Position numbers and translations under genes: made by a program
The notes under the pieces: model-generated
What the model was told of the DNA's origin: nothing
What the model saw: the letters and a program-made list of their open reading frames with translations, nothing else
Databases searched by the model: none
In this document: positions 3,162 to 5,354 of the stretch, in pieces
Layout: each line of letters starts with the position of its first letter
Position numbering within the stretch: position 1 is the first letter of the stretch
Source of the DNA: a virus
Strand: one strand, 5' to 3'
IMG/VR virus record: IMGVR_UViG_3300045988_001497
Location: 1 to 6,156 of that record
Length of the DNA stretch: 6,156 nucleotides

Positions 3162-3345
3162 TAGTTTGGGCTTTAAGTTCAACAAAATCATTCTCTTCTT
3201 TAATTGAATCCACAATAACAATAAGGCCCAACGAAGAAACTCGTTCAGAATAGTTTCCAAGACCGTCGAGAGAATTAACGATATAAGGCGAAACAACATC
3301 ACGGCCAGTGGTTTTGTCCTTAACTGAGATAATAAATTTTTGCAT
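3151..3345 (-). CDS. Hypothetical 64-aa protein, first ORF downstream of the predicted promoter (MQKFIISVKDKTTGRDVVSPYIVNSLDGLGNYSERVSSLGLIVIVDSIKEENDFVELKAQTNEN)
   Basis: This is the internal ATG (3345-3343) of track ORF 3151-3426; the longer version would run through the promoter. Codon pattern is G-rich at position 1 and T-rich at position 3, matching VP1. The residue composition is balanced and not an off-frame Leu/Ile/Phe-rich artefact. I recognise no family motif. It overlaps the next ORF by 11 nt. Confidence 0.5.
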   Translation of the reverse strand: MQKFIISVKDKTTGRDVVSPYIVNSLDGLGNYSERVSSLGLIVIVDSIKEENDFVELKAQTNEN

Positions 3346-3396
3346 AATTTTAATAAATTTTAAAATGTTAATAATAGTTGTAACTTCTAACGGAGG

Positions 3397-3427
3397 CAAA
3401 GGTATGACTTTTTTTCGTATTTCCAAA
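3397..3427 (-). promoter_or_regulatory. Bacteroides-type promoter: -33 TTTG, 19-nt spacer, -7 TAccTTTG
   Basis: The minus strand reads TTTG (3427-3424), then gaaatacgaaaaaaagtca, then TACCTTTG (3404-3397). This fits the published Bacteroides sigma-AB consensus of TTTG at -33 and TAnnTTTG at -7 with the expected spacing. In my read of the non-coding regions I saw no other TAnnTTTG in this sense. It sits about 50 nt upstream of the first ATG (3345). Confidence 0.5.
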
Positions 3428-3477
3428 TATTCTCTTTTAGGAATTGTGGGGATAGGACCATTTTGGGACGGAGTGTG

Positions 3478-3545
3478 AGTTGTGCGTTTATGGACGAGAG
3501 AAAACGAAATTGAGATGGTAACTCAATTTTCCTTCGGACACAACT
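3478..3545. other. 68-nt cloverleaf-like four-way junction (tRNA-like shape, non-canonical), function unknown
   Basis: The closing stem is AGTTGTG (3478-3484) paired with CACAACT (3539-3545), 7 bp. Arm 1 is CGTTT (3485-3489) with AAACG (3502-3506) and a 12-nt loop. Arm 2 is AAATTGAG (3507-3514) with CTCAATTT (3522-3529) and a 7-nt loop ATGGTAA. Arm 3 is TCC-TTC-GGA (3530-3538). All pairs are Watson-Crick and there are no unpaired junction nucleotides. Confidence 0.45.
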
Positions 3546-3560
3546 AGGGGCTTCGCTTGA

Positions 3561-3601
3561 ATAAAACAAAAAGTCCTAGATCCATTACTAATAGATCCAG
3601 G
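3561..3601 (-). terminator. Weak intrinsic-terminator candidate: imperfect 27-nt palindrome followed by a T-tract (minus sense)
   Basis: CCTAGATCCATTACTAATAGATCCAGG (3575-3601) folds into a 13-position stem with two A.C mismatches. In the minus sense it is followed by ACTTTTTGTTTTAT (3574-3561). The stem is AT-rich, so it is weak. Confidence 0.3.
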
Positions 3602-3631
3602 GCGTGGATGTATACAAAGGTGTATAGGCAC

Positions 3632-3653
3632 GGCAGGTCAGATAGAACCTGCC
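3632..3653. other. Perfect hairpin GGCAGGT-cagataga-ACCTGCC
   Basis: A 7-bp Watson-Crick stem (3632-3638 with 3647-3653) and an 8-nt loop, read directly from the sequence. Confidence 0.6.
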
Positions 3654-3656
3654 TTT

Positions 3657-3670
3657 GCGCGCCTTCGCGC
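3657..3670. other. GC hairpin GCGCG-CCTT-CGCGC
   Basis: A 5-bp all-GC stem (3657-3661 with 3666-3670) and a 4-nt loop, 3 nt after the preceding hairpin. Confidence 0.5.
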
Positions 3671-3722
3671 TAAAATACCGGAGCGGAACGCTCCTATAAG
3701 GAAGTCGCTCCGCTCCGTTTTT
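3671..3722. terminator. Long GC-rich hairpin flanked by A-tract and T-tract: candidate bidirectional intrinsic terminator for the VP1-VP3-VP2 transcript
   Basis: CGGAGCGGA (3679-3687) pairs with TCCGCTCCG (3709-3717), 9 bp. It can extend inward with CG/CG and CTCC/GGAAG around a TATAA loop. On the plus strand TTTTT follows (3718-3722). In the minus (gene) sense GTATTTTA follows (3678-3671). It lies 76-114 nt downstream of the VP2 stop. Confidence 0.4.
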
Positions 3723-3729
3723 AGACCAG

Positions 3730-3776
3730 GCCCTACGCGGGCGGCGGGTGTATATCGCTCAAACGCCGCGATGGGC
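3730..3776. other. GC-clamped hairpin with an AT-containing loop, immediately after the VP2 stop; candidate origin element
   Basis: GCCC (3730-3733) pairs with GGGC (3773-3776). After a 2x2 internal loop, CGCGG (3736-3740) pairs with CCGCG (3766-3770). An alternative register is GCGGCG with CGCCGC. The loop in virion sense reads TTTGAGCGATATACACC. Confidence 0.45.
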
Positions 3777-3792
3777 TTTTAGTCTTATGTTA

Positions 3793-4914
3793 TTACCGGC
3801 CGTCATAGATCGTAGTATTACGGGGACCATAACCAGGGCGGAAAGAACCAACAAAATTACCAGCACCGGATGCAAGAGAACCAAGACCACGGGAAACAGA
3901 CTCCCAATAATAAGCACGGGATTGTCTACGAGACAATTCAGCACCATATTCAGCAGCCTTCTGATTTGCCATAGAAGTCTTATATTCCGCATGTTTACGT
4001 AACTTAACATTCTTATAATCATACGTACTATCACGATACTGTAATTCATAAGAAGCATTAGCAGCCTTAATTAAAGAATCAGCAGTTTCAGACGCTAAAC
4101 GATTCTCAATATTCTTACCGGAAGCCTCGGCAGAAACAAGAATAGCACGCTGGATTTCAGTCTGAATCTGTTTTTCCGTAAGGGCTCCTTGATTCTGAAG
4201 ATTAACTAAAGTCTGAGCCTTAATAAATAAATCAGCCTGTTGGTTCTGATCCATATATTTATTTATAACACGCTGTGCATCAGAATTAAGCAAAATCTGA
4301 GTTTCCTGTGCAGCAGAAATACGTTCAGCGAACTGGGCGTTCTTTAATTCTTGAGCTTCCATAGACTGATCTAGAGCAGCAGAAATACGTCCTGTTGTTG
4401 GAGTCCAATAGCCGGAAGCACCAACTGCCAAATTTTTCCAACTAGTAAGACCTCTATAATAATCCTGCAAAATAGGAGTCAATGAATTAGTCTGATTAGT
4501 ACGAGCGTCGGACTCACGAGCAGAAGCTTCTGAAGATTTAGCTTGAGCTAGAGAAGCAAGAGACTGGAACACACCCGAAAAATTAGGTTTATAAGCCTGC
4601 ATGCTAGGAACAGGTGCAGCAGTAGCAGAAGCTCCACCGGAAGCGGGAGACCTAGAACCGGCCATAGCAGCAGAACCTTGAACAAATGGATTCAAACCTC
4701 GAGAAATCATTGCATCGGGAGAATTGTAAGCATTATTCATACCCCACATTTGTTGCTGCCAATCACGTTGAATCTGAGCCTGTTCAGCGTTAAATGCGTT
4801 CTGTTCACGCATCAGACGAAGATTAACCTTATTCTGATGATTCTGATTAACCATACCGACAATATTGTCAGTAAGGTTAGCAGCTGAGGAAGCTATAGCA
4901 TCAAACAAACCCAT
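3793..4914 (-). CDS. VP2: Minor capsid / DNA pilot protein VP2 (phiX H-like), 373 aa
   Basis: The N-terminus is MGLFDAIASSAANL...NLRLMREQNAFNAEQAQIQRDWQQQMWGMNNAYNSPDAMISRGLNPFV. It carries the pilot-protein signature of gokusho-type microviruses (QxxFNxxEAQKxRDWQxxM...NAYNSPxAxMxRxxxAGLNP). The central region is Ala/Ser/Gln-rich and predicted helical. The position after VP3 fits. The ATG 4914-4912 overlaps the upstream stop (TAATG). Confidence 0.85.
   Translation of the reverse strand: MGLFDAIASSAANLTDNIVGMVNQNHQNKVNLRLMREQNAFNAEQAQIQRDWQQQMWGMNNAYNSPDAMISRGLNPFVQGSAAMAGSRSPASGGASATAAPVPSMQAYKPNFSGVFQSLASLAQAKSSEASARESDARTNQTNSLTPILQDYYRGLTSWKNLAVGASGYWTPTTGRISAALDQSMEAQELKNAQFAERISAAQETQILLNSDAQRVINKYMDQNQQADLFIKAQTLVNLQNQGALTEKQIQTEIQRAILVSAEASGKNIENRLASETADSLIKAANASYELQYRDSTYDYKNVKLRKHAEYKTSMANQKAAEYGAELSRRQSRAYYWESVSRGLGSLASGAGNFVGSFRPGYGPRNTTIYDGR
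4310..4390. repeat. Exact 15-nt direct repeat GCAGCAGAAATACGT (4310-4324 and 4376-4390) inside VP2
   Basis: The two copies are 66 nt (22 codons) apart. They encode RISAAQ and RISAAL in ...GRISAALDQSMEAQELKNAQFAERISAAQ.... Confidence 0.9.
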
Positions 4915-5354
4915 TATTCAGAAGGAGCAGACGCGGAATCCGAAGACGGCACTGCCTTATTCTCTGCCAACATAGTCTCTGCAAATTCAGTAAGTTCAGA
5001 CTTCTCACTAGCCAATTGTTGAAGAACAGCCTGTCGTTCCGACATAGTCTGACAATGACGAGAGATAACACAATTAAAACGTTCCTCATCAGTCATACCG
5101 TCCATAACAGTAGACTGAGTAGGATGCATCTGAGCAAGAATATTCTGAACATTCATATCACCAAGCAAACGGCGATATTTTTCTTGGTTAAGAAGAATCT
5201 GCGTCATATCACATTGAAGCAAATCACCGTCAGAAGATTCATCATACATAACAGTATCATAAACAGACTGCTGATAACACGGATGTCCCTCAATCAACTC
5301 GGGAACAACCTCATTCTTAATATAATCGGGATTTATATAAGCAAAATTTCTCAT
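4914..5354 (-). CDS. Putative internal scaffolding protein (VP3-like by size and position), 146 aa
   Basis: Track ORF 4914-5360. I prefer the ATG at 5354-5352 (MRNFAYINPDY...) over the TTG at 5360. It is acidic and about 150 aa. It sits between VP1 and VP2, which is one of the gene orders I recall for gokusho-type genomes, though I cannot confirm that here. The codon bias looks like that of the confirmed genes. I recognise no strong family motif, so only the coding call is firm. Confidence 0.6.
   Translation of the reverse strand: MRNFAYINPDYIKNEVVPELIEGHPCYQQSVYDTVMYDESSDGDLLQCDMTQILLNQEKYRRLLGDMNVQNILAQMHPTQSTVMDGMTDEERFNCVISRHCQTMSERQAVLQQLASEKSELTEFAETMLAENKAVPSSDSASAPSE

Follow-up and report, generated by a model that had tools for sequence, protein, structure and literature searches.

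Microviruses rank with the most common phages in the mammalian gut, and we know of no account of where either DNA strand is started in those outside the phiX/G4 group. The 6,156-nucleotide (nt) stretch analysed here (the window; IMG/VR virus record IMGVR_UViG_3300045988_001497, which has direct terminal repeats) is the complete circular genome of a gut microvirus with all genes on the minus strand, in the order VP1 (Phage_F), a 148-amino-acid (aa) protein, VP2, a gap, a 64-aa open reading frame (ORF), an M15 peptidase and an HUH Rep (561 aa, PF23343 in Pfam); a 99-nt repeat at both window ends stems from linearisation, and the VP1 frame runs across it. Intergenic spacers elsewhere in the genome are short, and the gap between VP2 and the 64-aa ORF is its only long stretch without genes. 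We find that it holds an element, read throughout on the minus, gene-sense strand, which is conserved in position and structure, pairs in the manner of DNA, and consists of two modules, only one of which is universal. A replication role at the DNA level is highly probable; in the reading that we favour, to which we give a probability of roughly 0.45, the gap would be a replication-origin region whose 3′ module is the priming signal of the complementary strand.

A conserved element without coding potential

3346-3792, minus strand: the whole non-coding region, from the VP2 stop to the start of the 64-aa ORF (from ORF lists, Pfam, composition and folds)

Thirty-four GenBank records hold this region, and two conserved blocks of it, used as queries, yielded about 120 microvirus contigs in IMG/VR; of 130 related microvirus loci searched with a profile, 129 have the element. 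Capsid identity is at least 60% within this element-bearing clade and at most 41% outside it, and an initial protein-based locus search recovered the same clade only. In an alignment of 105 sequences less than 97% identical (A2, the 105 relatives referred to below), 21-22 base pairs of the derived structure show changes in both partners. Pairing holds in 95% of cells, versus ~33% (25-45%) when the partners are slid, and none of 500 shuffles attained the observed values. The core of the element (3473-3786, gene-sense strand) has an identity of 0.85-0.89, the level of the best coding parts, whereas the adjoining VP2 is poorly conserved (0.3-0.5), and most of the genome's longest invariant k-mer runs fall in the core. 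An earlier note on this DNA had proposed a cis-acting element formed by folding of the single strand, with positional and structural conservation in relatives as a check, and both kinds of conservation are evident.

The same note had described a single non-coding gap of ~450 nt, locally GC-rich and devoid of an ORF, a description that holds in each part. VP2 (373 aa) terminates at 3793 and the ATG of the 64-aa ORF lies at 3345; the GC content is 0.555 at 3601-3800 versus ~0.40 elsewhere in the genome; and a conserved ORF, which the note had named as evidence to the contrary, was not found in the 105 relatives, where a frame is open through the element in 0-1 sequences and the mean number of stops per frame is 3.6-5.2. 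Indels of 1 nt in element loops among the relatives were also counted against coding. A conserved ORF entered by stop-codon readthrough after VP2 was rejected, since the conserved TAR at the start of the element lies off the VP2 frame and the downstream stops vary. ARAGORN found no tRNA or tmRNA in the gap, and a search of Rfam at E <= 10 returned nothing credible, only chance-level matches with E > 2. The comparison of folding with shuffled controls that the note had suggested gave structures better than dinucleotide shuffles throughout: for RNA folding of 3346-3792, z = -6.5 (minus strand) and -4.2 (plus strand), and for DNA folding of the core (3470-3792), z = -7.3 and -6.1 on the two strands.

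Two deposited coding sequences annotated as hypothetical proteins overlap the structured element in relatives: L131:3581-3784 (PP511646.1), a genome whose 3′ module lies at 3650-3746, and L005:587-913 (PP511392.1). Both are probably spurious ORF calls.

Only the 3′ module is universal

The 3′ module (3473-3556, ~95 nt) comprises the following parts, listed in gene-sense order.

3550-3556, minus strand: GCGAAGC mini-hairpin, the first element of the module (counts in 103 relatives)
3478-3545, minus strand: three-way junction, made up of an 8-base-pair (bp) closing stem (3538-3545/3478-3485), a CCGAAGG mini-hairpin (3531-3537), a hairpin (3507-3529) and an unpaired strand (3486-3506) (covariation, model R1)
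3486-3500, minus strand: invariant unpaired CTYGTC-YATAAAC (here CTCTCGTCCATAAAC), with a pyrimidine tract before it (motif counts)
3473-3477, minus strand: invariant 3′ tail CACAC (103 of 103 relatives; ACAG or ACAC in sister clades)

The mini-hairpin at 3550-3556 reads GCGAAGC in 96 of 103 relatives, GCGGAGC in six and ACGAAGT in one; the sister-clade versions (GCGAAGC, GTGAAAC and ACGAAGT) differ at their ends, indicating that the closing pair covaries. The hairpin within the junction has 8 bp and the loop TTACCAT here, TTAYCNT across relatives, and CT[TC]GTC is found in 105/105 relatives as well as in all 47 sister-clade matches. The earlier note had drawn a cloverleaf at 3478-3545. Its closing stem and two of its arms are retained, but the third arm (the fourth, counting the closing stem) pairs in only 5-46% of relatives and was discarded as not conserved; what is kept is therefore a three-way junction in which one long strand stays unpaired. 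The module is positioned after the terminator-like hairpins of the gap and before the only predicted promoter of the genome.

Sister genomes keep a gap after VP2, and R1, a covariance model built from the 95-nt 3′ module, matches them with scores of 52, 33 and 19 bits. Of 80 sister loci 47 gave a match, without exception on the strand of VP1; all 18 loci with terminal repeats, that is, the complete ones, were among them. These clades are as distant as 30-45% identity in VP1 and ~30% in Rep. Both partners have changed in 19 of the 20 pairs within the sister matches, which keep CTTGTC and the mini-hairpins.

The 5′ module (3606-3786), together with any copy of TATACACC, is absent from L039 and L072 and in part from L022, relatives whose Reps are 82-86% identical to that of the window. 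L072 is a complete relative (55-nt terminal repeat, Rep 83% identical) that lacks the 5′ two-thirds of the element. A sister clade carries an upstream module of its own, which is not homologous to the 5′ module but has GNA/GNNA mini-hairpins and TATACACC, the latter once per genome, ~145 nt upstream of the 3′ module; its gap opens with a hairpin and T tract at the very start. Only the ~95-nt 3′ module is thus universal, the 5′ module being clade-specific and dispensable, and the single block envisaged by the earlier note resolves into two units. TATACACC had been a candidate for a universal Rep nick site; this was ruled out because L072, L039 and L022 lack it yet have such similar Reps.

A DNA-like pairing pattern on the gene-sense strand

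Among 48 well-aligned internal pairs, 4952 of 5011 cells are Watson-Crick, 16 are G.T (0.3%) and 12 are A.C; pairs switch between G-C and A-T almost without G.T intermediates. The most variable hairpin of the sister clade shows up to four pair types per position with no G.T in 315 cells. Overall that clade has 22 G.T versus one A.C, at helix ends only, an imbalance which indicates the sense strand. Loops follow the same strand: the pattern X-CG-N-AG-X′, in which C-G closes a GNA triloop, has a density of 10.8 per kb on the sense strand of the element, versus 0.24 on the antisense strand and 0.56 in the rest of the genomes, and the GNA mini-hairpins (GCGAAGC, CCGAAGG) are ~19-fold enriched in the element on the sense strand only. 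Both loops of the 3′ module obey the GNA/GNNA rule in ~150 sequences, with covarying closing pairs. Such GCGNAGC mini-hairpins melt at 70-76 °C as DNA, are far weaker as RNA and are poorly bound by single-stranded DNA-binding protein (SSB) (Kimoto and Hirao, PMC13037366); DNA mini-hairpins are found at the primase sites of G4, St-1 and alpha3, at RSF1010 ssiA (CCGAAGG) and at N4 promoters (PMC13037366). The best reading of these sequence patterns is that the element acts as folded DNA and not as RNA.

Architecture of the 5′ module and the adjoining predicted promoter

The 5′ module, the variable spot between the modules and the promoter downstream of the structured core contain the following features.

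3754-3778, minus strand: knot 1, two crossing helices, AAGCC 3774-3778/GGCGTT 3762-3767 and ATCGC 3768-3772/GCGAT 3754-3758 (covariation)
3747-3754, minus strand: first copy of TATACACC, the unpaired linker between knots 1 and 2 (8-mer census)
3730-3746, minus strand: knot 2, crossing helices CGC 3744-3746/GCG 3736-3738 and GCCC 3739-3742/GGGC 3730-3733 (covariation)
3707-3713, minus strand: GCGGAGC mini-hairpin with a GNA triloop (motif census; GCGAAGC in some lineages)
3671-3694, minus strand: terminator-like hairpin GGAGCG-TTC-CGCTCC (stem 3680-3694), then GGTATTTTA (terminator scan, covariation)
3659-3670, minus strand: short hairpin GCGC-GAAG-GCGC (pair 127-134 is AT in 81 and GC in 24 relatives)
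3632-3653, minus strand: hairpin GGCAGGT...ACCTGCC (covarying: GGCAGAT/ATCTGCC, GGCAAG/CTTGCC)
3606-3626, minus strand: second copy of TATACACC with a TATACATCC repeat, a weak optional hairpin (missing from some lineages)
3565-3601, minus strand: optional palindrome CCTGGATC...GATCTAGG with a T tract, terminator-like (terminator scan, alignment)
3397-3427, minus strand: predicted Bacteroidota-type promoter TTTG-N19-TACCTTTG, upstream of the 64-aa ORF, peptidase and Rep genes (read from sequence)

The helices of the two knots are attested by compensated changes. In relatives the first helix of knot 1 appears in the Watson-Crick versions AGAGCC/GGCTCT, AAAGCC/GGCTTT and GGGCC/GGCCC, and the second as ATCAC/GTGAT, ATCCC/GGGAT and ATCC/GGAT; in knot 2, pair 47-57 is CG in 95 sequences, TA in six and GC in four, pair 52-62 is CG in 102, GC in two and AT in one, and pair 54-60 is CG in 101 and TA in four. 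TATACACC, which links the knots, is concentrated in the element: its density there is 6.3 per kb, whereas outside it, across 94 genomes, the value is 0.007 per kb. Farther along, pair 100-114 of the inner hairpin at 3680-3694 is GC in 64 and AT in 38 sequences without exception, GGTATTTTAGC is found at this terminator-like region in 92 of 105 relatives, and the hairpin at 3659-3670 has as its counterpart in 23 relatives a GGA triloop (ACGGAGT). Only a minority of relatives carry the 27-nt palindrome at 3575-3601 with its T tract, which is inserted at the same variable spot in the manner of a small optional hairpin cassette.

The consecutive hairpins listed by the earlier note exist, although comparative data alter three of them. 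Its long-range GC clamp at 3730-3776, which belongs to the minimum-energy fold, is contradicted by covariation, since GGGC 3730-3733 covaries with GCCC 3739-3742 and not with 3774-3777; its CGGAGCGGA stem at 3679-3717 is re-paired, covariation favouring the inner hairpin 3680-3694 plus the GCGGAGC mini-hairpin 3707-3713. Terminators, which it had also placed in the block, have plausible counterparts in hairpins followed by T tracts, the features of an intrinsic terminator being matched, by consensus only, by 3680-3694 with GGTATTTTA and by 3575-3601 with ACTTTTTGTT.

The element at 3397-3427 follows the established Bacteroidota promoter consensus, is conserved in relatives and is the genome's only predicted promoter; it is expected to drive the 64-aa ORF, peptidase and Rep genes.

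A priming signal, a nick site or another function

In the Microviridae the packaged strand is the gene-sense strand, which is established for the family and assumed for this virus. On that basis the gap would be a replication-control region acting through the gene-sense strand, folded as single-stranded DNA. After entry, host SSB would cover the circle except at very stable hairpins; the two GNA mini-hairpins (GCGAAGC and CCGAAGG) would nucleate folding of the 3′ module, and the three-way junction would hold the pyrimidine tract and CTYGTC-YATAAAC unpaired. We infer that a host priming enzyme starts the complementary strand there, perhaps a DnaG-type primase, as at G4 oric or RSF1010 ssiA, with RNA polymerase or a PriA primosome as less likely candidates; no primase gene is encoded by the phage, as judged from ORF lists and Pfam across the whole genome. 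The 5′ module would provide the intrinsic terminator of the VP1-VP2 unit along with accessory hairpins and knots bearing TATACACC repeats, which may help priming or the exclusion of SSB and are dispensable. A complementary-strand origin, proposed by the earlier note for the whole block, remains the best-fitting role once it is assigned to the universal 3′ module.

Several points weigh against this. Besides the assumption about the packaged strand, CTYG after a pyrimidine tract resembles the nick region of pC194- and phiX-type origins and the Rep has the phiX A active-site motif, so that the 3′ module could be the Rep origin instead of, or in addition to, a priming site. Covariation restricted to Watson-Crick pairs is also compatible with extrusion of the structure from duplex DNA, and we know of no priming specificity for a Bacteroidota primase.

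The chief competitor, which we regard as possible but distinctly less probable, is accordingly the layout of rolling-circle plasmids, in which the 3′ module would be the viral-strand (double-strand-type) origin, nicked by Rep (VP4) after CTYG, and the 5′ module a complementary-strand origin resembling a single-strand origin (sso). In this scheme CTYG, in the unpaired junction strand, would be cut twice: once where it is extruded from the supercoiled replicative form and, at termination, a second time on the displaced strand. The invariance of CT[TC]GTC extends to the pyrimidine tract before it and an A/T-rich stretch after it, in 105/105 relatives and all sister matches, a make-up shared with pC194 (TTTCTTATCTTG/ATAATAA), with the Rep_1 nick heptamer CTTGATA (PMC10378824) and with phiX (CAACTTG/ATATTAATAAC). 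The Rep has an HUH motif (HYHLLLF) and YVASYVN, against YVAKYVN in phiX A, and thus a Y-x-x-x-Y active site; the 3′ module co-occurs with homologous Reps down to ~30% identity and lies directly upstream of the rep operon promoter, and the genome offers no other long conserved non-coding candidate for a viral-strand origin. In rolling-circle plasmids the sso is a dispensable cassette upstream of the double-strand origin (dso), as the 5′ module is upstream of the 3′ module. A similarity to the M13 origin core (CTCTTGTTCCAAAC...ACAACACTCA) is marginal (28/2000 shuffles, p ~0.014, uncorrected) and fails in sister clades; that to the 30-nt phiX origin is not significant, its best alignment being equalled by 215/2000 shuffles, and the phiX origin lies inside gene A and needs no hairpin. 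Neither the exact heptamer CTTGATA nor, on either strand, the sso hallmark CS-6 (TAGCGT/A) occurs in any of the 105 relatives, and L072 would be left with no complementary-strand origin, handicapped at the first step of infection. The Rep origin that the earlier note had entertained may therefore be sought in the 3′ module, at CTYGTC, and not in the GC-rich 5′ hairpins, which L072 lacks with a Rep 83% identical. Priming is preferred over nicking because of the family analogy and because selection preserves a single-stranded fold of the sense strand; both could be true.

That the element works as RNA, as a structured non-coding RNA or a structured 3′ untranslated region of the late (VP1-VP2) transcript that protects against exonuclease or acts on a host or defence factor, appears improbable. 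In its favour, the strand concerned is that of the mRNA; the 5′ module, placed immediately behind VP2 and ahead of a terminator-like hairpin, is on that account probably transcribed; and the compact crossing helices, strong covariation and RNA fold (z = -6.5) are what such an RNA might show. Against this stand the missing Rfam match at E <= 10, G.U pairs no commoner than A.C in the internal pairs (16 vs 12 of 5011) and absent from the 315 cells of the most variable hairpin, loops that obey a mini-hairpin rule specific to DNA and weak in RNA, a universal 3′ module that lies downstream of the terminator-like hairpins and upstream of the promoter, and a sister-clade gap that opens with a hairpin and T tract.

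Still more improbable is that the gap holds only terminators or insulators between late and early units, a packaging signal, or an attachment site for Xer-mediated integration. Although the gap does have two terminator-like hairpins, each with a T tract, terminators need no ~300 nt with invariant unpaired motifs and a cross-clade three-way junction. The packaging signal suggested by the earlier note has nothing in its favour, and we know of no separate packaging signal in the Microviridae. Proviruses of Bacteroidales microviruses do integrate at dif-like sites (PMC3091885), and one provirus of a sister clade, L246, lies within a 43.8-kb bacterial contig, flanked by genes for an aspartyl-tRNA synthetase and a pseudouridine synthase. 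Its 19-bp direct repeat (ACCTAACCGCCATTATGTT) occurs at 5332-5350 and 11492-11510; the viral copy falls inside the Rep N-terminal coding region, so that integration splits Rep, with the 3′ module preserved whole at a distance of 380 nt. The 3′ module is thus not an attachment (attP/dif) site, as judged in this sister clade. A pattern scan with the 3′ module of 185,579 bacterial species genomes found no provirus copy of the element, and blastn of the element against plasmids gave no match.

Neighbouring genes and variable segments

In L215 (6700-7554) a gene for a 284-aa XerC/D-like tyrosine recombinase directly follows a microvirus-like block of Rep, VP1, VP2 and 3′ module and is followed by SSB and lysozyme genes; it may represent a neighbouring element or serve the provirus as its recombinase. 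Some relatives (L006 and L008, Dulem virus 254/255, and L072) have ~160 nt extra between VP2 and the element, with a 51-aa ORF and a TAnnTTTG-like motif. The identity of VP2 (3793-4914) to that of relatives is bimodal, ~47-52% or 70-86%, whatever the identity in VP1 and Rep, which suggests modular exchange of this pilot protein gene adjoining the conserved gap. Within the Rep gene, at least 82% of 94 genomes retain a 19-nt run at 2001-2019 (TCGGTCGTTCAGATTTCCA), third codon positions included; it lies beneath an alternative-frame ORF (1603-2154).

Comparison with known origins

The oric of G4, St-1 and alpha3 is, like the present element, an intergenic hairpin cluster on the packaged strand of a microvirus (assumed here to be that strand), with a GNNA/GNA DNA mini-hairpin (GCGAAAGC, GCGTTAGC) at the priming site and a short C-T-G-type motif in single-stranded DNA beside the hairpin (PMC13037366). 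The 3′ module has two such mini-hairpins and, in place of the three tandem hairpins by which the G4-type oric is described, a three-way junction and a ~25-nt unpaired strand; the host here is one of the Bacteroidota, not E. coli. RSF1010 ssiA/ssiB likewise are small folded single-stranded signals with a CCGAAGG mini-hairpin and initiation in the neighbouring single strand, but they are recognised by a plasmid-encoded primase (RepB′), whereas this phage has no primase gene.

In the sso-dso arrangement of rolling-circle plasmids (pC194 and pT181 families), a structured, oriented module that can be lost or exchanged is found immediately upstream of a conserved nick-type motif and rep, and the nick motif is a pyrimidine tract followed by CTTG; unlike them, the present element has no CS-6, no CTTGATA and no plasmid match, and its Rep is of the microvirus VP4 type. 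The Ff intergenic region (hairpins A-E) is also a single hairpin-packed non-coding region, combining terminator, minus-strand and plus-strand origins, and gpII, to whose binding core there is a marginal match, gives the Rep domain family PF23343 its name; Ff phages belong to another virus realm, with another fold and a packaging hairpin that has no counterpart here, and the weak match is missing in sister clades. The viral-strand origin of phiX174 (30 nt, gene A) has CTTG before an A/T-rich run, shares with our system a Rep with HUH and YVAxYVN, and is followed after 2 nt by a CCCCGAAGGGG GNA mini-hairpin (L255:71-84, phiX174 4320-4333); it differs in lying within a gene, requiring no junction structure and showing no significant similarity.

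Discussion

Folded single-stranded DNA origins are a known kind of element. The architecture and distribution reported here are new in the literature searched, in which no earlier description of either was found; other small microviruses have conserved intergenic hairpins of uncertain role (PMC9865509). A bolder proposal, which we hold to be doubtful, is that knots 1 and 2 are true DNA pseudoknots of the packaged strand and that the junction is a structure-defined origin of a family-level group of gut microviruses, offering CTYG to both the host primase and the phage Rep. If the pseudoknots were real, they would constitute a natural, functional, tertiary-folded single-stranded DNA.

For the initiation of DNA strands in microviruses, the element provides a defined 95-nt candidate with invariant bases. 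Its covariance model is a structural marker that would reveal the packaged strand and flag spurious ORF calls in deposited genomes, and the element itself would allow DNA mini-hairpins, perhaps also DNA pseudoknots, to be tested in vivo in a natural setting.

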